NCBI GenBank assembly: GCA_965215945.1 | Contig: CBDCFC010000047.1 | Span: 20,643 to 84,642 of the forward strand | Source of the DNA: Arenicellales bacterium | GTDB taxonomy: Bacteria; Pseudomonadota; Gammaproteobacteria; Arenicellales; JAHEKD01 | Reading direction: 5' to 3' | DNA length: 64,000 nt | In this document: positions 3,947 to 31,122 of the stretch, in pieces | Layout of the letters: each line of letters starts with the position of its first letter | Numbering within the stretch: position 1 is the stretch's first letter | Notes under the pieces: model-generated | What the model was told of the DNA's origin: nothing | Seen by the model: only the letters and a program-made list of their open reading frames with translations | Database searches by the model: none | Position numbers and translations under genes: made by a program

Positions 3947-5470
3947 TCAACTTTTACTGACCAAATCGCCAAGAAACTTCGCAAACGGTACTATATTGCC
4001 GTTAACGCTTGCTTCTTCAAGGGACTGCATATAATCATTGTGCTGTTCTACCGGTATTACAGTCCACGGATATCCGCCCGAAGCTAGCATGGCATTCATC
4101 AAAAAACGTCCTATACGCCCGTTACCATCCATATAGGGATGAATATAGACAAAGACCCAGTATCCAAGTACGGCCCTGACACCTGCATGTTTTTCATTTC
4201 GTAACTGATCAAAAAAGTTAGGCATACAATCAAGCACAGCATCTTTGTTGAGTGGAACGTGCATTGAATTACGGATATAAACCTGGTTATTCCGGTAACC
4301 CGCAAGGTCGCTCACTTTCAAAATGCCTGCATCAACACTTGGGCCGAACAGAGCACGGTACCAGTCACCATGATCGTCAGAGACGACTTCTCCTGCATTT
4401 TGTTTTTCTAGGATTTTCTTGATACTTTCCTTAACCTCGTTAAAAGCCAGCCAATACCCACGGGCGGCCATCGCATCACGTTGTTCGTGGTCTGCCTGAT
4501 TATTATCGGGGTTCCATGATCCTTTCCTAACATGTTCAATGAATGCTTCACTAACTCGATATCCTTCAATAGACAAGGAATGGTAGGCATCTGTAACATA
4601 TATATCATCGACAGCTTTCAAGTATTTGTCTATATCCGTCGGAATACCAGGGGGGGACGGAAAGTGTTTGATGACGCTTTCACGCATGCTCTGCCAGCTC
4701 GCATATAAGCGATTAATATAGGCCGAACGTGTTCGTATCGGCAAGTTGATAGTTAAATCATATTCGAATGGATCGGATTCGTTTACAATGTAACCCGCAG
4801 CGCGCATTGCTTTTAATATGTTATCGGCTACCTTGCCACGTCCGATATTACGGAATGCCCCGGCAAGGCGACCAGCAATTGTGCTATGCCCGCCCTCTAA
4901 AAGTATAGTCAGCAACTCAGAAGCATCACGGATTGCTGTCAGGGCTGCTCGCGCATCAACCGGATATGAATGGAAAAATCTAACGCCGCTACCTACCAAT
5001 GCATGTGTTAGCTTAAATGTGCGTAAACCACCAACTTCTTCTAGGGCATCACGCTTAGCGACTTGGGCTCGAACTTCAAGAATAGATGTTCCATGTGTAA
5101 GATTAGTGATTTTATTACGGGCCTTCGGAGAGCGAATTAAAAGTTGCTTGGGTACAGTGCGGTTTCCGGCATGAATAAGGATTGACTGCTCAGGCGAAAG
5201 ACTCCACCCATCGCCAAAACGATGGTCCAGATAGGCAGCACAAAAATCCCAAAATGATGCGTACCAAGAGGTGGTTTCTCCATCACTTATCTCCTCTGGT
5301 CGTGACGGAATATACCAACCTTTAATGACTGGTTTAAGAAATCCATTTCGGGTGAGACGTTCTCGATGCCGTCTTGCCAATTCTTTAGATTGGATCGCTA
5401 CAACTCCTCTATCCTGGAGAGCTTTTAAAGCCTCTAAGGCTTCGGCGAGATGTTCTTGCGGACTGATCAC
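3947..5470 (-). CDS. Fic-domain protein (putative AMPylase) with an AbiEi-like N-terminal wHTH segment
   Basis: 507 aa with a GTG start preceded by the purine-rich GAGAAGAG. It has the Fic core HPYMDGNGRIGR, the inhibitory-helix motif SLSIEG ([ST]xxxE[GN]), and an N-terminus (GVVAIQSKELA...GFLKPVIKGWYIP) resembling AbiEi antitoxin N-domains. Confidence 0.85.
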   Translation of the reverse strand: MISPQEHLAEALEALKALQDRGVVAIQSKELARRHRERLTRNGFLKPVIKGWYIPSRPEEISDGETTSWYASFWDFCAAYLDHRFGDGWSLSPEQSILIHAGNRTVPKQLLIRSPKARNKITNLTHGTSILEVRAQVAKRDALEEVGGLRTFKLTHALVGSGVRFFHSYPVDARAALTAIRDASELLTILLEGGHSTIAGRLAGAFRNIGRGKVADNILKAMRAAGYIVNESDPFEYDLTINLPIRTRSAYINRLYASWQSMRESVIKHFPSPPGIPTDIDKYLKAVDDIYVTDAYHSLSIEGYRVSEAFIEHVRKGSWNPDNNQADHEQRDAMAARGYWLAFNEVKESIKKILEKQNAGEVVSDDHGDWYRALFGPSVDAGILKVSDLAGYRNNQVYIRNSMHVPLNKDAVLDCMPNFFDQLRNEKHAGVRAVLGYWVFVYIHPYMDGNGRIGRFLMNAMLASGGYPWTVIPVEQHNDYMQSLEEASVNGNIVPFAKFLGDLVSKS

Positions 5471-5814: not shown

Positions 5815-5891
5815 GCGCCCGTAGCTCAGTTGGATAGAGTACCTGGCTACGAACCAGGCGGTCGGGCGTTCGAATCGCTCCGGGCGCGCCA
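5815..5891 (+). tRNA. tRNA-Arg (anticodon ACG)
   Basis: 77-nt cloverleaf with the same acceptor and D arms as the first tRNA-Arg, anticodon loop CTACGAA, T-arm GGGCGTTCGAATCGCTC and a CCA end. Confidence 0.92.
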
Positions 5892-5900
5892 ATAAAATCA
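5844..5900 (+). repeat. attL-like 57-bp direct repeat (48 nt of the tRNA-Arg(ACG) 3' end plus 9 nt of flank)
   Basis: It matches 25786-25842 perfectly (TGGCTACGAACCAGGCGGTCGGGCGTTCGAATCGCTCCGGGCGCGCCAATAAAATCA). Confidence 0.75.
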
Positions 5901-6584: not shown

Positions 6585-6724
6585 GAATGTTGTGATGCCA
6601 TTGATTATCATCGCGTCGTTTTATTTCTGAACAAAACCTAATAATTTAACTTGACTGGGGTAGGTCGATGTTGATAATACCCCCCCCCAATACATTAATT
6701 TATTTTAATAGACAAGGTTTGACA

Positions 6725-7060
6725 ATGAAAAAAAGATTGCTAGCGGTGTTCATGGTGCTATCTAGTTTAAGTGTGCATGCCGATGTTTGGACACCTTATG
6801 TTTCTATTAGTCGATTTAAAAGTTACACACATAGCGATAACTTTTATGTGTTATCCGCAACCACATTGAGTGTGCCCGGTTGTTCGGACGCACAATGGTT
6901 GTATTTTAGAATTGATGAAAAAAATGGACAAACTGCCAGTCGGCTCAAGCAAGCGAAAGTGGTTGCTTTAGCCGCTCAAATGTCGGACAAGAAAATTAGG
7001 GCCTATGGTGATTGTTTTAATGCAAGTACATTTGAGGTCCATAGCTTTGACATTATGTGA
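6725..7060 (+). CDS. Small secreted protein of unknown function
   Basis: The start was trimmed to MKKRLLAVFMVLSSLSVHA/DV, a Sec signal peptide with an AxA-like cleavage site. The mature part has two Cys residues. It is the first gene of a tightly spaced same-strand cluster. Confidence 0.55.
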   Translation: MKKRLLAVFMVLSSLSVHADVWTPYVSISRFKSYTHSDNFYVLSATTLSVPGCSDAQWLYFRIDEKNGQTASRLKQAKVVALAAQMSDKKIRAYGDCFNASTFEVHSFDIM

Positions 7061-7084
7061 CGGGTCGAAGCGAGTTTGTACCCG

Positions 7085-7510
7085 ATGAAAAACTTACTAC
7101 GCATCCTTAGTATTTACCTGTTAGGAGTGTCGACAATTAATGCTGCAGATTCACTGCACGGTGCTAGCAATATTGTATTGTTACAGGCGGCTTGTCCTAC
7201 TGCCTGGGAAAAAGTCGACAAAGTATATGCAAAGCCGTCGTCCGTGCCCTGGGCGAATGAAACCGACCGGCAAAAGAACCTTGAATTTCAACGTAATTTT
7301 ATCTTGCAACAAACCAAGACCGGCTCACGGGATACAGATTCCGTCAGCCGGGATGTGATCACGGTATTAAGTGAATGTGTCAAACGCCATAATCTGGTGG
7401 TGCGGGCGGAATTCAATAAAACGATTGGTAAATTACCGGAGCTGAAAGAGCGTGTGGATATTACCCAGATTTTAATGCTGTTACTGTTGGATGATTCAGA
7501 TGAGAATTAA
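7085..7510 (+). CDS. Secreted protein of unknown function
   Basis: The start was trimmed to MKNLLRILSIYLLGVSTINA/AD (signal peptide). Its end overlaps the next gene. Confidence 0.55.
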   Translation: MKNLLRILSIYLLGVSTINAADSLHGASNIVLLQAACPTAWEKVDKVYAKPSSVPWANETDRQKNLEFQRNFILQQTKTGSRDTDSVSRDVITVLSECVKRHNLVVRAEFNKTIGKLPELKERVDITQILMLLLLDDSDEN

Positions 7511-7514
7511 TTAC

Positions 7515-7877
7515 ATGAATAAGGTGGGTTGTTTGGCGTTAACAGTGCTGTTAGGTGCCTGCGGCGGTGGGGGTTCAAGTAGTGGCGGTAGCAGTGCCGA
7601 TACCGATGTGACCCGCTGTATTCGTGCCGAATCTGTCGCTACGAATATAGATGTTTTCACCAGTAAAGCGCGATATACCAACACCTGCGATTTTGCCGTG
7701 AGTCTGGCTTACCGGACGGTTACCATAACAGTAGCAGGCCCAGTGACGGTAATACCGGGTGGTATGCATGAGGATTTGCTGGGTCGAATCGGTGCGGGCG
7801 AATTTATTGCTTGTCGCCCGCCGTCGCAGGGCACGAACAAAGGGGATTTGCCCAATCCAGAATTGGGCTGTACCTGA
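7515..7877 (+). CDS. Lipoprotein of unknown function
   Basis: MNKVGCLALTVLLGAC has the lipobox LGAC and is followed by a Gly/Ser linker (GGGGSSSGGSS). Confidence 0.6.
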   Translation: MNKVGCLALTVLLGACGGGGSSSGGSSADTDVTRCIRAESVATNIDVFTSKARYTNTCDFAVSLAYRTVTITVAGPVTVIPGGMHEDLLGRIGAGEFIACRPPSQGTNKGDLPNPELGCT

Positions 7878-7908
7878 TGATTATCGATGTAAAGTGAGTA
7901 CGGATTAA

Positions 7909-8472
7909 ATGAAAATAAAACTGTTAGTCATTATTTTAGCGGGTGCGTTTGTTGTTGCTAGTTCGTATTACGGGTGGCAAGCGAAACGGACCACTAAGGG
8001 TGCATTGGTACTCGATCAAAAGCATCAATATCTCGTTCGAACAACAGCAACTAATTCATCAGATGAAGACCGTTCAGTCACAGCGAAACCTGAACCTGAA
8101 ATTAAAAGCGATTTGGTCCAAAGTGGTACGGCCGAGTCATCCCTAGCAGAATTACCCATCGAACAGCGCAGCGAAAAACCGATCGATCACACGAGATACA
8201 AAGCCCAACACGCCTTGCCTGAAATACAGCCAGTCACGATGCCCAGTTCTGTGACGATGGCAAATTCACTGACATTGACGCAAATCAAAGCCCTTGACGT
8301 GGAGGATTTATCGCCGCCGACGATGATGAAAGGCGATGCATCCGGTGAAATCTCATCTGTAGGCGGTGCGTATTCAACCGATTCGGCTTATGAGGCACCA
8401 CTTAAAGTGATTGATTCGGTAAGCCGTCAAAGCGGAATTCCCGCCGCTGATTTGCAACAGGCTTTTGATTGA
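7909..8472 (+). CDS. N-terminally membrane-anchored protein, predicted to be largely disordered
   Basis: It has an N-terminal hydrophobic segment (KLLVIILAGAFVVASSYY), and the rest is low-complexity and Ser/Thr/Glu/Pro-rich. Its stop overlaps the next ORF. Confidence 0.5.
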   Translation: MKIKLLVIILAGAFVVASSYYGWQAKRTTKGALVLDQKHQYLVRTTATNSSDEDRSVTAKPEPEIKSDLVQSGTAESSLAELPIEQRSEKPIDHTRYKAQHALPEIQPVTMPSSVTMANSLTLTQIKALDVEDLSPPTMMKGDASGEISSVGGAYSTDSAYEAPLKVIDSVSRQSGIPAADLQQAFD

Positions 8473-8486
8473 GGGTTGATAAGCGT

Positions 8487-17856: not shown

Positions 17857-18207
17857 ATGCAGTTAAAAATTTTATTAGGTTTGATCCTGTCAGGGTTCGT
17901 TATTGCTTTAAGTGGTTGCGGAAATTCTAATGCTATAAACAATAAACTATCGTTGTCTGTTATTGATATGGACATAGAAGACATACAATTAAATACATGT
18001 AATTCCAGTATTAAATTAAATGCTAGTATAGGTAATCTAACTTATGAGCATACTGGTTGTTCAAACACTGATTATCATTTGGTGTTAATTTATAAGGACG
18101 GGTTCGTTGTAGATGAAAATTTTGGCTATATTCCTGGTGGTGAATCTGTTCATCATAAAATTATAGTTAGGGATAGAAAAATAGAATCATCAACAGAATC
18201 AAATTAG
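17857..18207 (+). CDS. Putative cognate Rhs immunity lipoprotein
   Basis: 116 aa, starting 2 nt after the Rhs stop. It has a lipobox (VIALSGC/GNS). Its position directly after the toxin is the standard toxin-immunity arrangement. Confidence 0.65.
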   Translation: MQLKILLGLILSGFVIALSGCGNSNAINNKLSLSVIDMDIEDIQLNTCNSSIKLNASIGNLTYEHTGCSNTDYHLVLIYKDGFVVDENFGYIPGGESVHHKIIVRDRKIESSTESN

Positions 18208-18474
18208 TTTAGAAAACACATGTAGTCAGATTTGATTTTTATTTGACTAAGTATGTGATGTAAAGTGCAAAACAGCTTTGAACTTTGCGCTATTTGCCAT
18301 TGAAATTATTGACAGACGAATGTTTAAATCCTGTCTATGCAAAAATTATTTAATGGCTTATAGACATTTTTTAAGTAACGTTCTTTTTAAATTAAAACTG
18401 CCAAGCTAACGCCTTGTTTGTGTTAGGGAAATTTACAATTTAGTTGATAAATTGCATTAGACCCACCCGTACAC

Positions 18475-19752
18475 ATGAGGGGCCGCGTGTATGATCCGGT
18501 ATTCGGGCGGTTCCTGTCACCTGATCCGCATATTCAAAGCCCGCTCAACAGCCAAAGCCTGAATCGCTACAGTTATGTCTTGAACAATCCGCTTAGTCTT
18601 ACTGATCCAAGCGGGTATTTCTTCAGCTGGTTTAAAAAGCTGTTTAAGAAGATTCTCAAAGTGATCAAGAAGATCATCAAGAAGATCGTGAAGATCATCA
18701 AAAAAGTCATCAAGGCGATAGAAAAAGTCATTACCAAGATCATCATGGCTTTGCCGGTGGAGATACGGATTATTGCGGCGATAGTAGTGGCGATCTATGC
18801 GCCTCAGATTGCCGGGGCGCTGCTCAATGCAGCCCCAGCGCTAACGAGTGGTATAATCAATGCAATTGGTTACGGTGCGTTTAAAGGTGCAGTCGGTGGA
18901 TTTTTGGCGGGCTTGATTACCACGGGTTCGTTTACAGGAGCCTTAATTGGTGGGGTCACAGGTGGGGCGTTTGGTGCGATAGGAAGTCATTTCAAGAATA
19001 TTGGCATCCAGAACCAAATGGCAGCAGGTGTGTCTCGCTATCAAGGTATCGCCAATGCCGGTTCAAATTTACTGAAAAATGGCCTGACACGATTGCAGTT
19101 TGCGACACAGTCACTCGCGCATGGTGTTGTTGGAGGATTAAATTCCAAGCTTAGTGGTGGTAGCTTTAGTAAAGGTATACTAACTGGGTTTTTAAACAAG
19201 ATTGCCAGCCCGATAGTATCAAGTACGAATTCATTTGTGAGTTTGGTGCGTCATACAGCCTTTGCGGGTATTGTAAGTAAAATAGCGGGTGGCAGTTTTA
19301 GTCAAGGTGCTAGAATTGGATTTATGGCAACGTTGTTTAATGAACTTGGCAATGGGAGAGGTGATAAGCTTTGGGCAGATACGAAGAAATGGTTTGGGGA
19401 ACATTTTCGATTTGGTGATACTGTAAACTTACGCGCAGGTGGTTTTGGTATTGAGCTTGATCATCGCTCAGCTAAATTATCAGATTATTCTAGTTCGGAG
19501 ATGACTAAAAATGGGAAAGTAATTAACTTTTCGGAATCTAGAACTAAGTTTGCTGTGGAAGCCTTTGGAACAGGCTTTGAGTTTGAAAATACTTATGATG
19601 CAAGTGGAAATTTAATATCACGCGATTTGAATTATAGGTTTTTTTACTATGATATAAATGCTCAAGCGTTCACTATTGATATTTCTATAGGATTGGGGCT
19701 TTCTTTTGATTACAAGATTCCAATTTATGATCCTATCGAACCCGCCTATTAA
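18475..19752 (+). CDS. Orphan Rhs C-terminal cassette 1 (end of Rhs core, conserved delivery module, alternative toxin tip)
   Basis: It begins at the conserved core sequence M(R)[16 protein letters not shown] and contains DPSGY plus the same Lys/Ile helix and GGSFS motifs. The last ~140 aa are unrelated to the main toxin. I see no clear Shine-Dalgarno upstream, so it may be silent. Confidence 0.75.
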
Positions 19753-19754
19753 GA

Positions 19755-20024
19755 ATGAATATGTTTGGTTTTCTTAATGACCTCAAATCTTCGCATGAAA
19801 TCTTATATTACGGTATATTGATTGGCTTGCTGATATTTGTTGCATATTGTATTTCTGAAATTATTGTTGACTTTCAAAATTTCAAAAACACCCATTGGTT
19901 TAAAGTTATTATTTATCTTCATTTGATAGCAGTGTGTTTGTTGATTATCCATCCCGCCTTATTATTCATTGCTCCTGTAGGTTATTTGGTTGTCAGGTTT
20001 TTATATGGTTATTTAAATAAGTAA
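19755..20024 (+). CDS. Putative immunity protein for orphan cassette 1 (small multi-pass membrane protein)
   Basis: 89 aa, starting 2 nt after the orphan stop. It has two or three hydrophobic segments (ILYYGILIGLLIFVAYCI, VIIYLHLIAVCLLII, LLFIAPVGYLVV). Confidence 0.6.
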   Translation: MNMFGFLNDLKSSHEILYYGILIGLLIFVAYCISEIIVDFQNFKNTHWFKVIIYLHLIAVCLLIIHPALLFIAPVGYLVVRFLYGYLNK

Positions 20025-20054
20025 AGTGTAGGCACAATAGGATAGAAAGGTTCG

Positions 20055-20513
20055 GTGAAAATTGGAGGTGGAGGAATTGGTGGGAAAGTAACTAGGGGTG
20101 TTATTGCAGGTACGATAGGAGGTATTGCATCAAATCTTATTGGTGGCTCGTTTTCGATGGGAGCCAGGTTGGGTGCAATGAGCCGGTTTTTTAATGATGA
20201 GCATGGATTTGCTAGAGTTAAAGATTTTGGTAAACAGGTTTGGAATGGAGTAAAGGAATGGTTTGCCAATGGTCCAGATGCGCATATTAACCGCAATGTA
20301 AATCAGAGTTGTCCAACTACTTGTGATGGAATTAACAATGGTGATTATTTTGAGGAAGGGCAGGCACCATTACATGGCGGTGATGAGGGTTATTTTACTT
20401 ATCGAGGGATAGGGCCGGAGAACCGGGGCTTTCAGTGTACTTACCAGACGCAGTGCAGTGGAAATCCAGCGGCTCCATTAATCCAGGATCCGGCTTATGC
20501 GGGTAACCGCTAA
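20055..20513 (+). pseudogene. Orphan Rhs-CT fragment 2 (only the last pre-toxin motif plus a third toxin tip, no immunity gene)
   Basis: It shares LIGGSFSMGARLGAMSRFFN with the main Rhs CT (LIGGSFSMGARLGAFSRFFN) and then diverges. It runs into the recombinase remnant. Confidence 0.5.
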
Positions 20514-20784
20514 AGGTAAGCGGGTGATTGTAGGGACATTAGGAGAGTGGGTGCGTAATTATTTGGATGAAGCGGAAATTACAAAGCCGGGTGCCTGCCA
20601 TTTGTTTAGGCATACGGTTGCGACCATGATGCTGGAAAACGGTGCCGACATTCGTTATATCCAGGAATTACTAGGGCATTCGAGTATTACCAGTACCCAA
20701 ATCTACACCAAAGTAACGATTAACAAATTAAAAGAAGTGTACAGCCGCACGCACCCAAAAGTAAATAAAAGGGGACGCCCATAA
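20497..20784 (+). pseudogene. Tyrosine recombinase/integrase, C-terminal remnant
   Basis: The 95-aa ORF carries the catalytic C-terminal signature [39 protein letters not shown] (HxxR...LLGH...Y). The N-terminal two-thirds of an integrase is absent. Confidence 0.7.
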
Positions 20785-21039
20785 GTCGTTAAAAGTCAAT
20801 AGTTCATAACGGTATATAAGGGTAACCCCTTGGCTCTCTATAAACAGAGTTTAATGAGCGCATCTGAATTTATGATTGTGAGCTACTTTTAGATAAAGTG
20901 CTTCAGTCACCCATCAGGATTAAGGCGATACACCGTTCAGGTGCTTCCCTTGGCCGTATTCAGTCCCATTAAATAATCAGTACCTTGAGATCACTAGTCA
21001 GTATGTGATGATGGATTGTCAGTCAGTCCCATTGTAGTT

Positions 21040-22416
21040 GACCTCAAGGGCACTTTATTAAACGCTATTTCGATGATACTGGCGGTGGATACTCAGAGGA
21101 CCGGGTTATTAACCATTCCCCTTTTGATCTTACCGCCAGATAAAACGGTCAGCCAAACGCTAAGTGAATATCGAAGGGTTGCTGGCGACTTAACATATGG
21201 TATACCGCCCGGGTTAATTTGTTGGCGATCGTTTTTTTCGCCACCATAACAGGTACTTTCTTAGACTTACGTTGATAATACCGTTTAATCGTAGGATTCC
21301 AGATGCAAGCATAATGTGCCGCTTCCACAAACGCCATGGCCAGATAGCGATTACCATTTTTGCTATTGCCTTTGGCTTTGAGTTTGCCGTTACTGATTTT
21401 ATTGGCCGGCACACACCGTGCATAAGAGGAATAATGACCCACTTTAGAGAATCGTTCGATCGGTCCTGTTTCCAGTAAGATGCTCATGCCCAGGATTTGA
21501 CCAATGCCCGGGACACTGGTGAGCAACTCGTAGTCAGTGCGGTCACATCGTGCTAACACAAATACCTCAATGGCTTTAATTTGCTGGCGTAGTAGGTGGA
21601 GTAAATGATGGGGTTGTTGGGCGGTAAACAACATCACCGGATCATTAAAATACTGATCTAAGTTCTGTTGATCGAGTTGTTTGATCTGATGGCTGGTTAA
21701 GCGTTTACCGGTATGTCGATTGATCAGACTCTGTAAACTTAATAGCTGAGCGGTGCTTTGTTTGACCAACAGTAGTCGCCGTCGTAATAAATCACGCACG
21801 GACCGCATGGCTTTTGGGTAAATATAACCGGTGGGTAAGATGCCTAGTCGAAGTAAATGGGCTAAGTGACGGGCATCACTGGCATCATCGGTGTACTTCA
21901 GACCGTTGTATTGCTGAATCGCTAAGGTATTGGCCAAGTGAACCGGATACCCTTGTTCGATTAAACCGTCCACTAGCCAGTACCAGTTGTAGGTGGATTC
22001 CACCACAATCCCTTGAATTTGTGATTGATAGGGTGCTAAATAACCAGTAATTACGTCAAGCTGGTTGGGCAGGCGTTTCTCACGGATTAACTGATCGGTT
22101 TCATTGATGATTGAAACCATACAATTATTGCTATGTAGGTCTATTCCGCAGTAAAGTGTCATAAGTCGTCTCCTCAGGTTTAGTTGACCTTCTACTGTAG
22201 TACACGGACGTGGCAGTAGAGAGGCGACTTATGATTTTCAGAGGGATTAAAAAGTAGGCAGTTGCTTACAATAAATGGTGTCCGACTCGATTTAATCTTC
22301 CAACTGTGATTTAGCAGGTCTGCCTCTAATAAAAGGTGCCGGAGGGATTATTTTTTAGGCACAGCAGGTGGTTTAGTCAGGCTGTTCAAATTTTAACCCC
22401 ATCCCCATTTACAGCC
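21040..22416 (-). mobile_element. IS110-family insertion sequence (ends approximate)
   Basis: It contains the transposase at 21149-22162. The right limit is set by the start of Rhs homology at 22417. The left limit is a guess, placed at a 10-bp motif (TAGTTGACCT) that also occurs at 22182. Confidence 0.5.
21149..22162 (-). CDS. IS110-family (DEDD) transposase
   Basis: 337 aa. The N-terminus CGIDLHSNN plus the central and C-terminal VPGIGQILGMSILLETG...SKNGNRYL pattern are typical of IS110-family recombinases. Confidence 0.9.
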   Translation of the reverse strand: MTLYCGIDLHSNNCMVSIINETDQLIREKRLPNQLDVITGYLAPYQSQIQGIVVESTYNWYWLVDGLIEQGYPVHLANTLAIQQYNGLKYTDDASDARHLAHLLRLGILPTGYIYPKAMRSVRDLLRRRLLLVKQSTAQLLSLQSLINRHTGKRLTSHQIKQLDQQNLDQYFNDPVMLFTAQQPHHLLHLLRQQIKAIEVFVLARCDRTDYELLTSVPGIGQILGMSILLETGPIERFSKVGHYSSYARCVPANKISNGKLKAKGNSKNGNRYLAMAFVEAAHYACIWNPTIKRYYQRKSKKVPVMVAKKTIANKLTRAVYHMLSRQQPFDIHLAFG

Positions 22417-25203
22417 CCCTTATTAGCCGGAACCTATATTAATGGCACAAATCCAGTGGCTTGGGAGCAAACGGCCATTGATAGTTATGATAATCCGAAT
22501 GTGGGGCCGTTCAAGTCCTCACCGATTCCCGGTGCTCAACTGATCTCATGGGATTCGGATGACAAGAACGGCCCGGAGAAGTGGTGGATCAATCACACTA
22601 CAGGGGAAATGGCAGCCGCCGAAAAATTGCCAATATACAAAAAACATAATTGCGATGAAGAAGAGGGCGATAACATTGACGATGACGAACTCTATGCACA
22701 GATTTCGCATGGTCAATTAGGTACAGACATTGCTGCCTTGCATAACAGTAAATTTTTTGAGCGTAATTACATTTATTACCAATACAAAGAGCTGGCCGAT
22801 CCGATCAATCAACTGGTGGAACAGGCGAACAGCACCTTTGAAACGGTCGAAACCCTGAAAACGGATTATGAAAACAGTGGTAGTACGTACTGGGAGGCAC
22901 TGGCCTATGCCCCGGACGGGCAGATCAAAAAAGCCAAATACGGCAACGGGGTGGAATCAAATTGGAAGTACGACCCGCGTGGTCGGACTTATGAGATTCA
23001 AGCCAAGAAAGGCAGCGGTGACTATTTACAGAACATGTTCTTTGACTACGACAACATCGGCAATCTCGTTTGGCGTGATGACCGGGTTAACCAATATGAT
23101 GAGCGATTCGAATACGATGTATTAAACCGTCTTGAATCGTCCACGTTAAGTGGCAGTGCGGTGGCGGAATATGCCAATCTGGGTCTTCAGAGTACGAATT
23201 ATGAATACGATGCGTTGGGTAATCTGACCTGTAAGTCGGATGTGGGTAATTACACTTACGGTCAGGGCATAGGCAGTGGTGCAGGTGTCCATGCGGTGGT
23301 CTCGACCAGCGGAACGGGCAATTCAAGTTGCAGCAGCAATGCTATCTACAGTTTTGCCCCGGCCAGTTTCAGTTATGACGATAACGGCAATCAGATCAGC
23401 GGCAACGGGCGTACGGTGACGTATTCACCGTTTAACAAGCCCACAAAAATCGTTAAAGGCGCGAATGTAAATGATTTTATCTACGGCCCGGAACGTCAAC
23501 TCATTTACCAGCGTGAAAAAATCCATGATGAGTACCGTGAAACCCGCTATGTGGGTGGGATATACGAGGAAACCATCAAGGACGGTAATGATAACAACGC
23601 TGAAGCGGTACATCATCTGACCATGGCCGGGCATACCATTGCGATATTAAAGACCAACACAGATCTAACCCAGGAGAAAAGCCGGCATTACCTGCACCAG
23701 GATCATCTTGATTCTGTGGTGATGATCACCGATCGTGATGGAAACGTGGTCGAGAAAAATCACTATGATCCGTTTGGTAAAAAGCGGTTAGCCATCATCG
23801 AGAATCCAACGATCTACGCCGCTGGATTCCTGCCGATCACGGATCGAAGCTTTACCGGACATAGGTATCTGCCCAAACAGGAATTGATTCACATGAAAGG
23901 GCGCGTCTATGATCCGGTGTTTGGTCGATTTCTCTCACCGGACCCGCACATACAGTCATCACTGAATAGTCAAAGCCTGAATCGCTACAGTTACGTGCTG
24001 AATAATCCACTCTCATTGGTTGATCCCAGTGGGTATTTCTTTAGCTGGTTTAAAAAGCTGTTCAAGAAAATTCTCAAGATTATCAAGAAGATCATCAAGA
24101 AGATCGTCAAGATCATCAAAAAGGTGATCAAGGCGATTGAGAAGGTGATTACTAAGATCATCATGGCCTTGCCGGTGGAGATACGGATCGTGGCGGCCAT
24201 AGTAGTGGCGATCTATGCGCCTCAGATCGCGGGGGCGATCTCCGGACTTCTTGGCGGAACTGCAACGGCACTGGGAACATTTTTTACGACTAAAATTGGC
24301 GTCGGTTTAGTTGGTGGATTCTTGTCTGGGTTAATTACAACAGGCTCATTTAAAGGGGCTTTAATTGGTGGGTTGACCGGAGCAGCGTTTGGTGCAGTTG
24401 GGGCTAGATTCAGCAATGTTGCCAGTAATAACATTAATACGGCAAGACTCGCGGGTCAAACACTTCAACAAGCTGGGCGTATTGCCAGTGGTGTGTTTAG
24501 GGGTTTAAGCTCGGGACAGGCATTCTTACAATCACTGGCGCATGGTATAGTGGGTGGATTGAATTCGAAACTGAGTGGCGGCAGTTTCAGCAAAGGTATC
24601 CTGACAGGATTTTTAAATAAGATTGCCAGTCCGATAGTATCTAGCACAAATTCATTTGTAAGTTTAGTTCGACATACACTATTTGCAGGAGTAGTGAGTA
24701 AGATAGCTGGAGGGAGTTTTAGTAGAGGGGCTAGAATAGGATTTTTGGCAACGTTGTTTAATGAACTTGGACATGGTAGAGGCGGGAAATTACTTGCAGA
24801 TACTAAGAAAACTATAGGCTCTACGTTTCAGGCAGTGAAACACTATTTTTTCGGTAACGGTGAATCCGTGGCATTAGATCAATATACTAAAGACTCGATA
24901 ATAAATTCAAACGATCAGAAATACCGTAGTCATCGAATACGAACTGGACAAACAACACGATTGTCCGGTAATTATGGAGTTGATGTCACAGACAAAATGT
25001 ACCATGTTGGAGATACAACTGTGAGCTATGATACGCAATGTGGAGTGAGTACATGCACTACAACATATACTGGTCAGGGAGATGGTTTTTGGGATCCGGT
25101 TATAGATGTAGATGGAATTGGGTCAGGAGGTGAAATTCCAGGCGGTACTCCGTATCCTTATGATCCTTTTTCATGGTCAGAAACATATCCAAATCCTTAT
25201 TAG
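22336..25203 (+). CDS. 5'-truncated Rhs paralogue (large orphan: part of the insert module, YD repeats, core, delivery module, alternative toxin tip)
   Basis: Rhs homology starts at 22417 (PLLAGTYINGTNP versus PLLPGKYINGENP in the main gene). The first 27 codons of the tracked ORF come from IS-flanking sequence. The last ~150 aa are unique (HYFFGNGESVAL...GDGFWDP...GGTPYPYDPF). Confidence 0.75.
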   Translation: MPEGLFFRHSRWFSQAVQILTPSPFTAPLLAGTYINGTNPVAWEQTAIDSYDNPNVGPFKSSPIPGAQLISWDSDDKNGPEKWWINHTTGEMAAAEKLPIYKKHNCDEEEGDNIDDDELYAQISHGQLGTDIAALHNSKFFERNYIYYQYKELADPINQLVEQANSTFETVETLKTDYENSGSTYWEALAYAPDGQIKKAKYGNGVESNWKYDPRGRTYEIQAKKGSGDYLQNMFFDYDNIGNLVWRDDRVNQYDERFEYDVLNRLESSTLSGSAVAEYANLGLQSTNYEYDALGNLTCKSDVGNYTYGQGIGSGAGVHAVVSTSGTGNSSCSSNAIYSFAPASFSYDDNGNQISGNGRTVTYSPFNKPTKIVKGANVNDFIYGPERQLIYQREKIHDEYRETRYVGGIYEETIKDGNDNNAEAVHHLTMAGHTIAILKTNTDLTQEKSRHYLHQDHLDSVVMITDRDGNVVEKNHYDPFGKKRLAIIENPTIYAAGFLPITDRSFTGHRYLPKQELIHMKGRVYDPVFGRFLSPDPHIQSSLNSQSLNRYSYVLNNPLSLVDPSGYFFSWFKKLFKKILKIIKKIIKKIVKIIKKVIKAIEKVITKIIMALPVEIRIVAAIVVAIYAPQIAGAISGLLGGTATALGTFFTTKIGVGLVGGFLSGLITTGSFKGALIGGLTGAAFGAVGARFSNVASNNINTARLAGQTLQQAGRIASGVFRGLSSGQAFLQSLAHGIVGGLNSKLSGGSFSKGILTGFLNKIASPIVSSTNSFVSLVRHTLFAGVVSKIAGGSFSRGARIGFLATLFNELGHGRGGKLLADTKKTIGSTFQAVKHYFFGNGESVALDQYTKDSIINSNDQKYRSHRIRTGQTTRLSGNYGVDVTDKMYHVGDTTVSYDTQCGVSTCTTTYTGQGDGFWDPVIDVDGIGSGGEIPGGTPYPYDPFSWSETYPNPY
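22549..23643 (+). repeat. Second copy of the 1,095-bp identical block (see 15188-16282)
   Basis: Same evidence as for the first copy, at an offset of 7,361 bp. Confidence 0.9.
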
Positions 25204-25218
25204 TTTTTAGGACGTGAA

Positions 25219-25656
25219 GTGGTTAATTTAAAGAAATTATTCTCATTAATATTTTTCACGTGTGTTGCCTTGATACAGGGTTGTTCTAGTAGTGAATTAC
25301 CTTATGAGTTGAAATTAACTTCAAACAGCAGTTATATGTGGATTGTTGATAAAGATGGTTGGGGTGTACTGACAGAAGGGAATAATACCTCAGATGATAA
25401 GTTAACAGTTGAAATCGTTAAGCTGAATAGGTTTTTTCTATTAGAAGATAGCCTTATTGTAGAGTGTTTACAAGATGGTGGTGATCTCATTTATGTTTTT
25501 CTTCAACCTTCATCAGGAGATAACTTATCTTTTCGAACACAACTTTTTACGAAAAAAGAATTTTATAATTTCCTTTCAATTAGTGAAAAATTTAATAACT
25601 TAGAGTTAGACTGGAAAGACTTTCGATTAAGTATATTTGAAAAAATAGGGATGTAA
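25219..25656 (+). CDS. Putative immunity lipoprotein for the large orphan
   Basis: 145 aa with a GTG start 15 nt after the orphan stop and AGGA upstream. It has a lipobox-like signal, FFTCVALIQGC/SSS. Confidence 0.6.
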   Translation: MVNLKKLFSLIFFTCVALIQGCSSSELPYELKLTSNSSYMWIVDKDGWGVLTEGNNTSDDKLTVEIVKLNRFFLLEDSLIVECLQDGGDLIYVFLQPSSGDNLSFRTQLFTKKEFYNFLSISEKFNNLELDWKDFRLSIFEKIGM

Positions 25657-25785
25657 TTATCGATGTGCTAAATTTGTGCCAAAGTAGTTGTAATTTACTG
25701 TTGTTTTCTGTCATTTACTGGCACATTTGAGTCTGGCAAGCGCCGCAAGTGTTTGATTTTAAAAGAAAGTAGTTTTAACTAAATG

Positions 25786-25842
25786 TGGCTACGAACCAGG
25801 CGGTCGGGCGTTCGAATCGCTCCGGGCGCGCCAATAAAATCA
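25786..25842 (+). repeat. attR-like 57-bp direct repeat (partial tRNA-Arg(ACG) 3' end plus flank)
   Basis: It matches 5844-5900 perfectly. No tRNA 5' half is present upstream of it. Confidence 0.75.
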
Positions 25843-25898
25843 GGAAGGACACAATAACTTACAGTAATTTTCTAGCATTTCATTAAACACCGTGTGCG

Positions 25899-25998
25899 GC
25901 TCTACAATATTAACGGGGGCTCTACAATATTAACGGGGGCTCCACAATATTAACGGGGGCTCTACAATATTAACGGGGGCTCTACAATATTAACGGGG
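25899..25998. repeat. Tandem repeat, 5 x 20 bp (GCTCTACAATATTAACGGGG)
   Basis: Five head-to-tail copies. The third copy has one T-to-C change. A partial sixth start (GCT) merges into the ISL3 end. Confidence 0.9.
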
Positions 25999-26009
25999 GC
26001 TGGCACTCA

Positions 26010-26150
26010 TTAAACCCTGTTGATAATACCATCCCATCCACATTGGGTTAGTACTCTCAATCGATAATTTTCAAAATTTCTAAATCCGTAAGCGCGTCTT
26101 GTCATCATTTCCATTTTGGTATGGAAGCCTTCAGTAATTCCATTTTCAGG
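26010..26150 (-). pseudogene. ISL3-family transposase, C-terminal fragment only
   Basis: The minus-strand translation is PENGITEGFHTKMEMMTRRAYGFRNFENYRLRVLTQCGWDGIINRV*, which is the conserved ISL3 transposase C-terminus. There is no upstream remainder of the gene. Confidence 0.6.
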
Positions 26151-26619
26151 TTGGCACATCAGTGCAGTATCCACATTCTGTTATCAAAGCCACAACAAGT
26201 ACAGTAACCACTTATTCATAACAAAATTGACTACTCTAAATCCAAGAAAGCAGAATCTCAGTTACCCTATAATAAATCAGAGCTTGGAAAAGCTGTAAGC
26301 TTTAAAGGAAACTATTGTAGTTATACTCCAACTGTTTTAATGCTACAATCTGCCTCGATGATTTTTAGATAAGGGTGGGTAAAAACCATCCAAACAGGGG
26401 CTGGAGAAAGGCGGGATCAAACCCGCCTTAAGTCCTCGCCACCACAACAATTATTTCATCCCTTCAATTTCTCGTCTTAACTCTTTGTTTTAGAAGCGTA
26501 TTGTATTTGTTTGTCTATTTGAGGTTGAAATTATAAGTTGTCCTAAGTGGACTTATTAATCTGGTTTTATGGGGATGATTTGTCCATTTGACCAATATTG
26601 GTTGTGCTAAAATCGCTCA

Positions 26620-26730
26620 CCGGCAATGTCTCGTCTCCATGGTGACGGAAAGTTGTAAACCCGGTCAGATCCGGAAGGAAGCAGCCGTAGCAATTATTTT
26701 GGGTACCGGGTAAGGCGGGTCATTGCCACT
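26620..26730 (+). ncRNA. ffs: Signal recognition particle RNA (4.5S RNA)
   Basis: It contains the conserved domain IV sequence GGTCAGATCCGGAAGGAAGCAGCC. The terminal helix pairs GGCAATG with CATTGCC. An extended -10-like TGcTAAAAT lies at 26605-26613. It sits immediately upstream of dnaX. The ends are accurate to about +/-5 nt. Confidence 0.8.
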
Positions 26731-26768
26731 TATTTAGAAGAATTATTGTCAGTGATCCAGATTCATTA

Positions 26769-28412
26769 GTGAGTTATTTAGCTTTAGCACGAAAATGGCG
26801 ACCACGAGATTTCTCTCAAGTGGTTGGCCAGGAACACGTAGTTAACGCGCTTGAACACGCGCTGGATACGAATCGTGTTCATCATGCATTTTTATTGACT
26901 GGCACAAGAGGTATTGGCAAGACAACACTAGCCAGAATTCTGGCCAAATCACTTAATTGCCAAATCAATGGTGTTTCGTCGAATCCTTGTAATACCTGCA
27001 GCAACTGTGTTGCGGTTGATGAAGGTCGATTTATTGATTTAATTGAAGTCGATGCGGCTTCACGAACCAAAGTCGATGATACACGTGATTTGTTGGACAA
27101 TGTTCAGTATGCGCCAACTACAGGTGAATATAAAATTTATTTAATTGATGAAGTGCACATGCTTTCCGGGCACAGTTTTAATGCGCTTTTGAAAACCCTG
27201 GAAGAACCGCCGCCACATGTAAAGTTCGTGCTGGCAACGACTGATCCACAAAAGTTACCTGTCACTGTATTATCGCGTTGCCTGCAATTTTACTTAAAAG
27301 CGCTGAGTATTGAGCAGATTACAGCTCAATTAAAAAACATCCTCGAGCAAGAGAAGGTGAGTTTTGAGGATTCTGCGCTGAGGTTACTGGCCAGATCGGC
27401 CAAGGGCAGTATGCGCGATGCGTTAAGTCTACTTGATCAGACCATAGCATTTGGTGGTGGGGAAGTCGAAGAAACACATGTTCGCTCGATGCTTGGGTTG
27501 GTTGATGATCGTTTTGTGTTCCGTATTTTAGATGCTCTGGCGGCGAGTGATGTAAGTCAGGTGCTTGAAGTGTCAGCCGAAATGGCCGAGAAATCAGTTG
27601 ATTTCATCAATGCCTTGGAAGAACTGTTATCTAAAATCCATCAGATTAGCCTACTACAATTCTCACCTGACATTGATATCGAGACGATTATCGATAAAGA
27701 GTTGCTAACAAAGTACGTTGATGTATTTGATAAAGAGACCATACAGCTTTTTTATCAAATGGCATTATTAGGCAAACGTGATATCTATCTGGCCCCCGAT
27801 TTGCGGACGGGTATTGAGATGACGTTGTTGAGAATAATTGCTTTTACTCCAGAACAACCCGGAAATGTGGAAACGGCAATTGCAAACAAAACAACAACTG
27901 AACCAAAAGCTCAGGCAACTAAAAAAGCCAAAAAACCAGCTTCTTTAAACAGCCAGTTTAATGAGCCTGACGAATTGAAAAAACCGGTTGCGACAGGGCA
28001 GCAACCGACTAAACCTGAGACTTCAATAGAGTTAACTAATTCTAATTGGCCTGAATTTGCGCAGTCGTTGAGTGTGACCGGATTCGCACGCGAAGTCGTC
28101 ATGAACTCGCTAGTCAATGAATGTAAAGGAGATACTATTGAGTTGCACGTTGCGGATGCCTGTTCGCATTTGGTCAATGACAAGCGCAAGAAACTGATTC
28201 AGACGGCATTTATCGAAAAATTAGATCGAGATGTTAATGTGAAACTTACGGTTAGTGATTTGACCGAAAAAACGCCGCAGCAGCTTAATAAGGAAAAACA
28301 GGATCAAAATTTGCTTGCGGCAGAGCAGGAAATTTTGAGTGATCCAAATATTAAAGAATTAATGGATAGCCTGGATGCAAGTATCATTCCGGGATCTGTA
28401 AAAGCAACTTAG
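26769..28412 (+). CDS. dnaX: DNA polymerase III subunit tau/gamma
   Basis: 547 aa with a GTG start. It has the Walker A motif GTRGIGKTT, a zinc module (CQINGVSSNPCNTCSNC) and DEVHML. Confidence 0.92.
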   Translation: MSYLALARKWRPRDFSQVVGQEHVVNALEHALDTNRVHHAFLLTGTRGIGKTTLARILAKSLNCQINGVSSNPCNTCSNCVAVDEGRFIDLIEVDAASRTKVDDTRDLLDNVQYAPTTGEYKIYLIDEVHMLSGHSFNALLKTLEEPPPHVKFVLATTDPQKLPVTVLSRCLQFYLKALSIEQITAQLKNILEQEKVSFEDSALRLLARSAKGSMRDALSLLDQTIAFGGGEVEETHVRSMLGLVDDRFVFRILDALAASDVSQVLEVSAEMAEKSVDFINALEELLSKIHQISLLQFSPDIDIETIIDKELLTKYVDVFDKETIQLFYQMALLGKRDIYLAPDLRTGIEMTLLRIIAFTPEQPGNVETAIANKTTTEPKAQATKKAKKPASLNSQFNEPDELKKPVATGQQPTKPETSIELTNSNWPEFAQSLSVTGFAREVVMNSLVNECKGDTIELHVADACSHLVNDKRKKLIQTAFIEKLDRDVNVKLTVSDLTEKTPQQLNKEKQDQNLLAAEQEILSDPNIKELMDSLDASIIPGSVKAT

Positions 28413-29344: not shown

Positions 29345-29738
29345 TCAGCAAGCTCAACTCTGCAAAAATAACAGTTGTTGGTTGCTGATCTGACATGTAA
29401 AAATTCAACTGTTTCCTGATTCAAGAGCTGCCGCGCCTTATTTTCAAACTCTTCGGTTCGTATAACTTCACCTGTACCTTCGATGATTCGTTCATTTTTA
29501 TTATCGTTCGCGTAAGCGACAGAATACCACGGGCTTGCGAACAATCTCCTGTGCTATTTGGGCCTGACAGGTCAGTGATGTACTTAATAGCCCGTTTTGA
29601 CGTACATGTTGAAACAGATCGGGATAACTGAAAGAACGGAGGAATTTGAGATGCCGGTGGATGAATGAGTGTATATAGATTGAACATCGCTCCTTAAATA
29701 AAGTGCGATGTTCATCGGATCAGTCCGCAAGGGCTTAC

Positions 29739-31122
29739 ATGGACACTGCCGATTTGCCACGTTAAATTAAATAAAAAGAAGATCAATTGCACACTTACAT
29801 CCGGCCTGTTATTGAAGTGGCGTGTTTCGACACTTCTGGCCCCAATGGAATACGCCGACAGGTTCCCTATCTGTTACTCGGAGTTTTACATCTCCAACCT
29901 TTTCGCCGGGGTTTCCCTGTCGCGGTCTGACCTGTTTTACCATCTATTTCACTTGTCGCAATCTGTCTGAGGGTTAATTATTAAGTACTTGATCATCGTT
30001 GTGTTGTTAAATTATCGAGCTATTGCTTGATAGGCTTGACCTGACGTTACTACACGCCATGCAATCCGTGCGGTTTTATTCGCCTGGGCCACACATGCCT
30101 TGTTGACATGAGTCCGATTCATTAATGCCGTGAGCCATGGTGATTTGTTTTCCATTCCAGCCCGTTGGCGGCGTTTCACACTGCAGATCACTGAGCGTGC
30201 ACCATGGACCAATAACATTCGCACATAGCCATCCCCTCGTTTGGATATGCCCAACAATCGCTGCTTACCCCCACTGGATGCCTGTCGAGGCACTAATCCC
30301 AAATAGGCCGCTAATTGACGGCCATTGTTAAATGCACGGCCATCACCGATCGTGCCGACCAACGCCGTTGCCGTTAATATACCAATCCCAGGTATGCGGG
30401 TTAATAATTGGCTCTTCTCACAGTGTTGGTGCCATCGCGTTATCGACTGTTCAATTTCATCAATCTTTTGTTGATACATGACATAGTGTTCGTATAAGTT
30501 TGACAGTAAGGTGCGCATAGCCGGATTCAGCTCATTTGACGCATCCGCCAATATATCCGCCATACGATGACCAATATGGTGGTTGCCCTGGGGGATTACG
30601 ATGCCAAATTCGCTTAATGTCCCCCGAATATGGTTGCTCAGCGCAATGCGTTGGGACATCAGCAATCGTCGTGAGTGGTGTAAATGCAGTATCGTTTGCT
30701 GATCTATAGATTTGACCGGTGCAAAACGCATGCTGGGTCGTTGTACCGCTTCGCAGATCCCTTGGGCATCATTTTGATCATTTTTATTTGATTTGATATA
30801 CGGGGCCACAAACTGTGGGGCCATGGCCCGTACGGTATGCCCAAGTTTAGCAAATTGACGGGCCCAGTAATGCATGGCACCACCGGCTTCAATCCCAATC
30901 AAACACGGTGATAGGTTGGCCAACAATGCAAGCAGCTGTGTACGGTTTACTTTCTTTTGTAAAACGACTTCACCGTGATCGTCTATCCCATGCAGTTGGA
31001 AACTATTTTTTGCCAAATCAATGCCTAATACGCTAATCTTGTTCATGGATACTGCCTCTTTTGTTAATTGAAATTTCAATTATGGCACTTTAGATGCCGA
31101 ATGTTATTGAGGCAGTGTCCAT
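29739..31122 (-). mobile_element. IS1111-like (IS110-family) insertion sequence, copy A, delimited by a 12-bp inverted repeat
   Basis: The perfect inverted repeat is ATGGACACTGCC (29739-29750) and GGCAGTGTCCAT (31111-31122). Copy B lies at an offset of 24,060 bp. Shared but more diverged sequence extends to 29497 and 31169. Confidence 0.65.
30012..31079 (-). CDS. IS110-family (DEDD) transposase, copy A
   Basis: 355 aa with LGIDLAKNSF at the N-terminus and IPGIGILTATALVGTIG...GISKRGDGYVR at the C-terminus. The protein is 100% identical to the ORF at 54072-55139. Confidence 0.92.
   Translation of the reverse strand: MKFQLTKEAVSMNKISVLGIDLAKNSFQLHGIDDHGEVVLQKKVNRTQLLALLANLSPCLIGIEAGGAMHYWARQFAKLGHTVRAMAPQFVAPYIKSNKNDQNDAQGICEAVQRPSMRFAPVKSIDQQTILHLHHSRRLLMSQRIALSNHIRGTLSEFGIVIPQGNHHIGHRMADILADASNELNPAMRTLLSNLYEHYVMYQQKIDEIEQSITRWHQHCEKSQLLTRIPGIGILTATALVGTIGDGRAFNNGRQLAAYLGLVPRQASSGGKQRLLGISKRGDGYVRMLLVHGARSVICSVKRRQRAGMENKSPWLTALMNRTHVNKACVAQANKTARIAWRVVTSGQAYQAIAR

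Follow-up and report, generated by a model that had tools for sequence, protein, structure and literature searches.

Why does a truncated copy of a toxin gene match its full-length neighbour almost base for base over 1.1 kb, while the sequence on both sides of this block is strongly diverged? The question is raised by a 64,000-nucleotide stretch of DNA from an Arenicellales bacterium (GenBank assembly GCA_965215945.1, contig CBDCFC010000047.1, positions 20,643 to 84,642 of the forward strand), which is referred to here as the window and to which all coordinates belong. The window carries a giant Rhs gene (the main gene) and, downstream of it on the same strand, several orphans, which are 3′ cassettes without the 5′ part of the gene. 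The largest of these, orphan 2 (22417-25203), is probably a silent 3′ cassette of the main gene that was overwritten recently by exchange with it, and the in-phase repeat that resulted is likely to be a substrate for switching the tip of the toxin. This reading is held with good confidence.

The tract shared by the main gene and orphan 2

In an ungapped comparison at an offset of 7,361, main-gene positions 15188-16282 and orphan 2 positions 22549-23643 have the same base at 1,094 of 1,095 sites. The sole mismatch (T at 15244, G at 22605) is synonymous (GGT/GGG), and the longest perfect run is the 1,038 bp at 15245-16282. An earlier note, made from the letters of this DNA, had described the block as a perfect repeat; its location and length hold, and its perfection is spoiled by this one base. 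Homology between the two begins at 15056/22417, which corresponds to residue 1898 of the main protein according to tblastn and agrees with the start proposed in that note. The 132 nucleotides (nt) on the left of the tract (15056-15187 against 22417-22548) are 64% identical, as expected from the roughly 130 diverged nt that had been read there. On the right, 117 nt (16283-16399) with 69% identity are followed by a second identical block of 86 nt (16400-16485 = 23761-23846, CACTATGATCCG...ATCACGGATCG), and these lengths match the estimates of about 110 diverged and 85 identical nt. Past 16485, identity is about 85% up to about 16850 and then 35-65% through the delivery module, which lies between the Rhs core and the tip. 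The last ~130 codons, which form the tips, are unrelated. Identity along the two genes thus falls into sharp blocks, and uniform divergence was not seen.

The tract also contains off-frame open reading frames (ORFs), three of which had been reported as the same at an offset of 7,361. All nine with at least 40 amino acids (aa) reappear at this offset, trivially because the tract is identical. Chance was assessed by random placement of the 139 differences over the 1,795 aligned sites. In 20,000 placements, the longest run free of differences was 180 nt, compared with the 1,038 observed, and the analytic chance bound for a run of 1,038 nt is ~1e-50. Identity by chance is excluded.

Age of the identical blocks

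The age of each block was read from a codon-level comparison of the main gene and orphan 2, which gives the proportions of differing synonymous (pS) and nonsynonymous (pN) sites. In the left flank (15056-15187), pS is 0.79 and pN is 0.22, and in the 117 nt on the right (16283-16399) the values are 0.79 and 0.18. Within the tract (15188-16282), pS drops to 0.004 and pN to 0, and both are 0 in the second tract (16400-16485). The following block (16486-16850) has a pS of 0.56 and a pN of 0.03. The pN/pS ratio of the neighbouring blocks is ~0.05-0.28. These values show that the flanking blocks are old, under selection, and saturated at synonymous sites, and that the two tracts are recent. With silent sites identical directly beside saturated flanks, recent homologous exchange is the only source left for the identity of the tract. 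The proposal of the earlier note that gene conversion or recombination had taken place recently between the main gene and the orphan is therefore strongly supported by a pS of about 0 in the tracts next to about 0.79.

The same note had read a patchwork of exchange that continued to the right. From 16486-16850 through the Lys-rich helix of the delivery module, pS is 0.37-0.9 and pN is 0.02-0.09 in all three pairs of the main gene, orphan 1, and orphan 2. The ~85% identity at 16486-16850 is old divergence under purifying selection, with no recent exchange. In consequence, the patchwork holds for the two identical tracts, and what lies beyond 16486 is ancient. The recent tracts number only two, and either a single conversion followed by patchy repair or two events may have produced them.

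Proposed origin and products of recombination

The main gene and orphan 2 would be old, diverged alleles with saturated synonymous sites, of which 1,095 bp and 86 bp would have been overwritten in one or two very recent homologous exchanges. The diverged flanks on both sides (64% on the left, 69% on the right) indicate that a diverged copy was overwritten and argue against a fresh duplication. The simplest route would be non-reciprocal gene conversion with patchy repair of the heteroduplex, and conversion is favoured over other recombination routes by the diverged sequence on both sides together with the second short tract 117 nt away. We infer that the tract arose in this manner. Orphan 2 would be untranslated in its present position. 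The tips are presumed to be toxins that are neutralised by the products of the genes downstream of them.

A direct repeat of 1.1 kb that is in phase would be an efficient substrate for RecA-type recombination. Unequal crossover could take place directly or follow a tandem duplication in which the main immunity gene is retained; it would link the first 2,306 codons of the main gene with the last 519 of orphan 2, and the delivery module and tip of the orphan would then be expressed. The computed chimera (main residues 1-2306 plus the last 519 of orphan 2) is 2,825 aa long and has no stop, and the fusion of the main Rhs gene to the orphan tip that the earlier note had predicted from deletion between the repeats is in frame. 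The tract begins at a codon boundary in either copy, so a crossover anywhere within it gives an uninterrupted protein. The unit lost by deletion or excision is exactly 7,361 bp. It comprises the main tip and its immunity gene, orphan 1 and its immunity gene, the remnant of orphan 3, an integrase fragment, and a copy of IS110. A simple deletion loses the main immunity gene, so the mutant would be exposed to the toxin of its siblings. A duplication intermediate, as in Salmonella, is thus likely to be selected in preference to simple deletion. Tip switching is expected to occur in populations by analogy, and as such it is a reasonable prediction that follows the precedent.

Several points weigh against this reading. 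Deletion, duplication, or circle variants were not seen in the one genome available, which has no strain-level relative in the collections searched. Simple deletion removes the main immunity gene together with the orphan 1 module and is likely to be counter-selected among kin. The conversion may have run in either direction. An outgroup test of reciprocal crossover against conversion with the relatives L082 and L001 gave an inconsistent pattern with small counts: L082 is nearer to orphan 2 in block b1 and the delivery module, but nearer to the main gene in block b2. Several events, or exchange that involved third alleles, may lie behind this pattern. Consensus scans of 17700-26800 for promoters and terminators returned counts equal to those of shuffled sequences, so the silence of the orphan is inferred. 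In addition, the immunity gene assigned to orphan 2 has no homologues, and the gene that follows a homologue of its tip elsewhere is unrelated.

Alternative explanations

Explanations that account for the identity without exchange can be weighed against the synonymous sites and the structure of the repeat. Functional constraint on the protein, or on the off-frame ORFs embedded in the tract, would keep two copies alike, and these ORFs are indeed the same in both; they are, however, short and a mechanical result of the identity. Silent sites are the same as well (pS 0.004 against 0.79 adjoining), and between species the segment is conserved only to an extent that resembles its surroundings, with 69-71% aa identity to the closest relative, L082 (253/355 aa), and ~62% to L001 (211/340). 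Since the tract is only 69-71% identical to L082 at the protein level, protein constraint is not the reason for the identity; this explanation is effectively refuted and is given next to no weight. An artefact of assembly or polishing, by which paralogues were homogenised or a contig end was duplicated, is considered very improbable. Polishing with ambiguously mapped short reads can wipe out small differences between repeats, and the main protein is missing from the protein collection in which orphans of the same contig are present. Yet a collapse removes a copy and never creates one, and polishing hides a few per cent of divergence at most, compared with the 30-36% of the flanks. Each copy stands in its own continuous frame with distinct flanks, one mismatch is kept, and with single-copy flanks only the reported order yields a linear path. 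A like pattern is also present in a chromosome-level metagenome-assembled genome (MAG) of another genus (L005).

Other explanations accept recombination, or the old age of orphan 2, and differ in the history they propose. In one of them, the tract is the crossover footprint of the integration of a 7,361-bp circle that built the array, and the resident 3′ end became orphan 2 (C-terminal displacement, Jackson et al. 2009). The circle would have carried a core fragment, the main tip, its immunity gene, orphan 1, orphan 3, the integrase fragment, and IS110, and the identity would have existed beforehand between donor and recipient. The model and its need for identical crossover sequences are described in PMC2935791, the 7,361-bp repeat unit holds mobile debris (the integrase fragment and IS110) that abuts the 5′ boundary of orphan 2, and the locus lies in a tRNA-Arg island. 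A weak hint is that the "incoming" parts, b1 of orphan 2 and b2 of the main gene, are nearer to L082 (32 against 28 of 44 and 33 against 28 of 39), but these counts are too small for significance. Further to the right, it is orphan 2 and not the main gene that resembles L082 in the delivery module (87/117 against 55/112). The 86-bp tract beyond 117 diverged nt suits patchy conversion better, and an earlier exchange would still be needed to place 1.1 kb of identity beside saturation. Displacement is thus regarded as unlikely. Slightly better placed, though still doubtful, is the proposal that orphan 2 is the 3′ part left over from a second, once full-length paralogue, e.g., of an older tandem island copy at the same tRNA, whose 5′ 5.7 kb were deleted with the involvement of IS110 and the integrase; the tract would come from later conversion, and the remnant itself is compatible with either conversion or displacement. 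No more than 254 nt separate IS110 from the homology boundary downstream of it, the truncated integrase and orphan 3 show deletions around the insertion sequence (IS), and the order of integrase fragment, IS, orphan 2, immunity gene, and attR resembles the integrase-proximal end of an island. Orphan 2 is also unusually long, with 1.6 kb of core. Against these points, the ends of IS110 are unmappable, a degenerate third att copy was looked for and not found, and similar large orphans without a neighbouring IS are present in L081 (P0010) and L005.

It is also improbable, although somewhat less so than an artefact, that orphan 2 is an independently expressed gene of ~930-955 aa that encodes a TcC-like half-shell with its toxin. 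Its frame is open from a GTG at 22336 and is a coding sequence (CDS) in the source record (P0008), a 932-aa ORF of similar extent occurs in L081, and its size is near that of TcC subunits. However, its first 27 codons are unrelated sequence beside the IS, and neither a signal peptide nor a recognisable ribosome-binding site or promoter is present. The only TcB-like partner is not free but fused to its own half of the shell, and the L081 orphan starts 60 residues earlier, which leaves no common domain boundary. A recently overwritten silent cassette remains the preferred reading of orphan 2.

The main gene

The main protein begins with a Sec-type signal peptide. It contains regions like those of TcB (FG-GAP_3, E 3.7e-9; TcdB_toxin_midN, E 9e-8), which are accompanied by RHS/YD repeats (PF05593, E 2e-20; TIGR01643, E 1.5e-13). 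The Rhs-associated core (TIGR03696) occupies residues 2347-2436 of the main protein and 477-566 of orphan 2, and the core of the main protein ends at residue 2433. The main gene, orphan 1, and orphan 2 all carry the core-end motif NNPLSL[TV]DPSGY, which has Y where L is usual. Beyond the core, the main gene encodes a delivery module of ~260 aa and a tip of ~130 aa.

The nearest solved structures by sequence are Rhs proteins of type VI secretion systems (T6SS; 8qja, 7q97, and 8cp6). No solved toxin complex (Tc) structure matched the main protein by sequence, and T6SS Rhs proteins were the only matches, with E values of 1e-16 or weaker. No match to PAAR or VgrG families was found in the main gene or the five ORFs upstream of it, and this result, together with the Sec-type signal, suggests that delivery is probably independent of the T6SS. 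The absent T6SS link lowers the claim to a classical T6SS Rhs protein and leaves membership in the Rhs superfamily intact. A TcA-like gene was found neither in the 64-kb window, where no other ORF exceeds 603 aa, nor within ±10 kb in the relatives L001 and L002. A weak precomputed match to SpvB occurs in the relative L082 only.

The intact 2,829-aa protein is missing from protein collections that hold orphan 1, orphan 2, and the orphan 2 immunity gene of the same 169.7-kb contig. A word-indexed search with the main core returned only matches of 1,043 aa or less. The absence may be a length effect of the database or may reflect another annotation in the source record.

The orphan 2 cassette

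Orphan 2 lies on the same strand as the main gene, 7,361 bp downstream, and lacks the first 1,897 main codons, including the Sec signal. It consists of 1.6 kb of core, the DPSG/Y motif (24022-24036), a delivery module (24034-24753), and a tip (24754-25200). The open frame reaches upstream to the GTG at 22336, from which NCBI annotates the 955-aa CDS P0008; this label should read orphan Rhs C-terminal cassette and not complete gene.

The tip, which the earlier note had called unique, is so within the window but has 294 homologous clusters elsewhere (E <= 1e-3, among 1.84 billion representatives). Among the 150 matches listed, the domain is always C-terminal, in proteins of 76 to 2,613 aa. The longest is a full-length FG-GAP/Rhs protein that bears the orphan 2-type tip after the core end …NNPLxxTDPTGYF, the same core end as here. 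The near-invariant residues of the family (24802-25203) are G..GDGFWD and GTPY.Y. An AlphaFold2 (AF2) model based on 37 family members shows three helices on an antiparallel sheet with a mean pLDDT of 92. A search of the tip against Pfam gave no match even at E = 10, and Foldseek found nothing below E = 0.26 for the model in the PDB. The number of homologues, their C-terminal position, and the confident model mark the tip as a genuine C-terminal toxin-type domain.

The orphan module ends, as had been noted earlier, in a lipoprotein-like immunity gene (25219-25656), whose product carries a lipoprotein-type signal (…LIQGC). This product is an ORFan that found only itself among 5.8 billion clusters. 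The gene that follows P0003, a tip homologue with 57-63% identity on a TARA contig, is unrelated to it. Position designates 25219-25656 as the candidate immunity gene. From the lipoprotein signals of the candidate immunity proteins, the toxins would be predicted to act in the periplasm. The TARA contig (L083, 2,601 bp) is itself a mini orphan array on another Rhs scaffold, in the order Rhs 3′ end, tip, small ORF, orphan P0003, whose tip is of the orphan 2 type, and a 133-aa ORF that is unrelated.

The delivery module between core and tip

The delivery module is located at 16663-17445 in the main gene, 18604-19395 in orphan 1, and 24034-24753 in orphan 2. It opens with an amphipathic stretch rich in Lys (16 K/R in 60 residues), continues with a hydrophobic helix and ~230 aa of Gly-rich sequence (18% Gly, 8-14 GxxxG motifs), and closes with the motif FN(E/T)(L/E)G. 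Its C-terminal half occurs as two ancient protein types, which makes the module a mosaic. One type is found in the main gene and the orphan 3 remnant, and the other in orphans 1 and 2 and in the relative L082. Between orphans 1 and 2, pN is 0-0.09 and pS is 0.57-0.79 over residues 2617-2695. Low pN beside high pS indicates that the delivery modules of the orphans are kept under purifying selection.

A pattern and tblastn scan revealed at least 587 loci with a related module, mostly in marine Gammaproteobacteria and also in Bacteroidota, Verrucomicrobiota, and others. Of the Pfam families, just the CdiA-associated DUF637 gave a signal in the module, below threshold (17.7 bits against 26.6). Glycine-zipper segments mediate the translocation of a T6SS effector (PMC10240207), and by analogy the module may have a role in translocation. 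A more far-reaching proposal, which is tentative and rather improbable in full, is that the unit of swapping is the two-part delivery module (~240 aa) plus the tip. In Sec-exported BC-type Rhs toxins that lack TcA, the module would serve as an autonomous, as yet undescribed device for membrane translocation, its types would be shuffled independently of core and tip, and the tract would be kept near-perfect by frequent conversion for on-demand swapping.

Comparison with known systems

Recombination of this kind was described for the rhs locus of Salmonella Typhimurium LT2, where it joins the orphan tip to the main gene, whose own tip and immunity gene are lost (Koskiniemi et al. 2014, PMC3967940). 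The recombinants were found alongside the locus in its ancestral form, and it was proposed that a duplication step retains the main immunity gene (PMC3967940). As in LT2, a full-length rhs gene is followed here by an orphan in the same orientation with a core fragment, a tip, and an immunity gene, and the two share a near-identical repeat (PMC3967940). The repeat is twice as long here, 1,095 bp at 99.9% compared with 522 bp at 95% in Salmonella, and the spacer of 7.4 kb contains two more orphans, the integrase fragment, and IS110. The main protein has 2,829 aa, a Sec signal, and TcB-like regions, whereas that of Salmonella is a T6SS-associated Rhs protein of ~1,400 aa. Recombinants were observed in Salmonella, whereas the present locus is known from one genome sequence.

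In enterobacteria, C-terminal displacement by homologous recombination through circular intermediates was proposed (Jackson et al. 2009, PMC2935791). Those arrays also have dissociated tips downstream of an intact gene, variable core fragments, and a decoupling of cores and tips (PMC2935791). The present host, judged by best hits, is probably a marine gammaproteobacterium with Arenicellales MAGs as its nearest relatives, and its array differs by an extra mosaic delivery module between core and tip and by its setting in a tRNA-Arg island. A similar arrangement is known from the orphan cdiA-CT/cdiI modules of contact-dependent growth inhibition (CDI), which are silent tip and immunity pairs located downstream and preceded by upstream homology (Poole et al. 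2011, PMC3150448). The sub-threshold DUF637 matches of the delivery module are a further likeness to CDI. The scaffold differs, since CDI uses a filamentous haemagglutinin-like two-partner secretion protein and the present locus an Rhs/YD shell. The main/orphan organisation and the recombination substrate match the Salmonella, enterobacterial, and CDI cases feature by feature, and in this respect the mechanism is already known.

The main protein resembles the TcB-TcC cocoon of Photorhabdus and Yersinia and the fused BC proteins in the order of FG-GAP propeller, TcdB_toxin_midN, RHS shell, and a cleaved variable C-terminus. Different TcC genes provide Tc systems with a choice of toxic ends. There these ends are separate subunits, whereas those of the present locus are truncated cassettes that depend on DNA recombination. 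An expressed gene that shares segments with silent partial copies for non-reciprocal exchange is also found in Neisseria (pilE/pilS) and Borrelia (vlsE), and the analogy with silent cassettes was drawn in PMC2935791. Those systems vary surface antigens at high frequency from many short cassettes, whereas here there are few cassettes that comprise whole toxin/immunity modules, with no evidence of programmed or high-frequency exchange.

What is new here is the unusual scaffold, the intervening conserved delivery module, and the tRNA-island setting. Main/orphan recombination, known from T6SS-linked Rhs genes of enterobacteria, is thereby extended to a giant marine branch with a Sec signal and TcB/TcC-like architecture. 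The evidence is unusually clean, as synonymous divergence is about zero in the tract and saturated next door. In addition, the locus offers three or four uncharacterised tip/immunity pairs and a conserved, uncharacterised delivery module, and one of its tip families combines 294 clusters and a high-confidence predicted fold with no solved relative found. It would be a ready experimental system, in which copy-specific flanks distinguish the arrangements.

Relatives and comparable loci

The closest relatives of the main gene are in an Arenicellales MAG (L001, 2,831 aa) and metagenomic contigs. A search for sister strains found only relatives with at most 54% identity in scans of genome contigs and nothing closer than 32% in scans of metagenomes. 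Exact look-ups of the main protein, YbaB, the main immunity protein, the IS110 transposase, and P0001 returned no record. A comparable pair is present in a Ca. Porisulfidus MAG (L005; OZ243950, 13937-20839, - strand), where a main Rhs gene and a 628-aa orphan share 1.45 kb at 98.7% identity (19 mismatches) with a spacing of 2,487 bp, in a locus that converges on another Rhs gene of 2,138 aa. In L003, a main gene and an orphan share a 220-nt block at 95%, and the 932-aa ORF of L081 (P0010) starts at main residue ~1838.

Three candidate observations were set aside. A common domain boundary of the large orphans was rejected, because P0010 in L081 starts at ~1838, orphan 2 at 1898, and database fragments at various points. 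Frameshifts in L082 at the orphan boundaries, one in a homopolymer of eight A and the other ~36 codons ahead of where orphan 1 starts, were attributed to sequencing errors or coincidence in a contig of 1.7x coverage. P0002 in L080 is a stray core-end fragment beside an IS200-type transposase in an unrelated locus and is uninformative.

The downstream array and the island

The features of the locus are given in Table 1. The array holds three or four unrelated tips, each with a small ORF 3-16 nt downstream, except for orphan 3. This remnant was not listed in the earlier note. After a module tail with 75% identity to 17349-17433 come ~95 aa of yet another tip; an immunity gene is missing, and the remnant continues in another frame into the integrase fragment. 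Attempts to map the ends of IS110 gave no result: distant blastn matches to plasmids fell inside the transposase gene only, no Rfam family matched, and the 5′ non-coding region folds no better than shuffled sequences (z = -0.45).

Table 1. Coordinates of the Rhs locus and its features in the window
Feature	Position	Strand	Basis or description
attL	5844..5900	+	last 48 nt of tRNA-Arg(ACG) (5815-5891) plus 9 nt
Main toxin gene, 2,829 aa	9365..17854	+	signal, family searches, motif
Recombination tract, main copy	15188..16282	+	1,095 bp, 1,094 same as 22549-23643
Second identical tract, main copy	16400..16485	+	86 bp
Candidate immunity gene, main tip	17857..18207	+	position and lipoprotein signal (…ALSGC); no homologues
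Orphan 1	18475..19752	+	last ~43 core codons, delivery module, distinct tip; 425-aa ORF (P0001)
Candidate immunity gene, orphan 1	19755..20024	+	89-aa multi-pass membrane protein
Orphan 3 remnant	20055..20513	+	last ~35 residues of delivery module (…GGSFSMGARLGAMSRFFNDE) and truncated tip
Tyrosine recombinase/integrase C-terminal fragment, 95 aa	20497..20784	+	
IS110-family transposase, 337 aa	21149..22162	-	at most 254 nt to the start of orphan 2
Orphan 2 (large orphan)	22417..25203	+	homologous to main aa 1898-2829
Recombination tract, orphan 2 copy	22549..23643	+	
Second identical tract, orphan 2 copy	23761..23846	+	
Candidate immunity gene, orphan 2 tip	25219..25656	+	lipoprotein signal (…LIQGC), lipobox-like
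attR	25786..25842	+	57-bp copy of the tRNA-Arg 3′ end, distal end of the island

The two att sites form an exact 57-bp direct repeat, for which no chance matches are expected, and they bound 19.9 kb that hold the whole Rhs locus and five small ORFs upstream of it. The GC content is 0.445 within the island and 0.42-0.43 outside. The only trace of an integrase in the island is the internal 95-aa fragment, and the tRNA-Arg island is probably immobilised now. None of eight related loci had a tRNA within ±10 kb. The genes ffs, dnaX, ybaB, and recR follow just past attR. A 20-nt tandem repeat (GGCTCTACAATATTAACGGG, 5.2 copies, 97% match) occupies 25898-26001, just outside attR in a non-coding stretch of ~0.8 kb before ffs (26628-26724) and dnaX.

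The five small ORFs upstream of the main gene (6668-9284) fall into no family of Pfam or NCBIfam. For four (144, 128, 187, and 271 aa), homologues lie downstream of a main-like gene or orphan in L001 (12211-14355) and L081 (5791-7004), and they form a conserved accessory gene set of variable position. Just upstream of the island, a 507-aa Fic/DOC-domain protein is encoded at 3947-5470 on the - strand, between the tRNA-Arg genes at 3446-3522 and 5815-5891. A second type of IS110-family element, with a 355-aa transposase, is present in two copies (30012-31079 and 54072-55139), whose flanks 29538-29837 and 53598-53897 are 95% identical. The three IS110 copies in the window indicate an IS110-rich genome.

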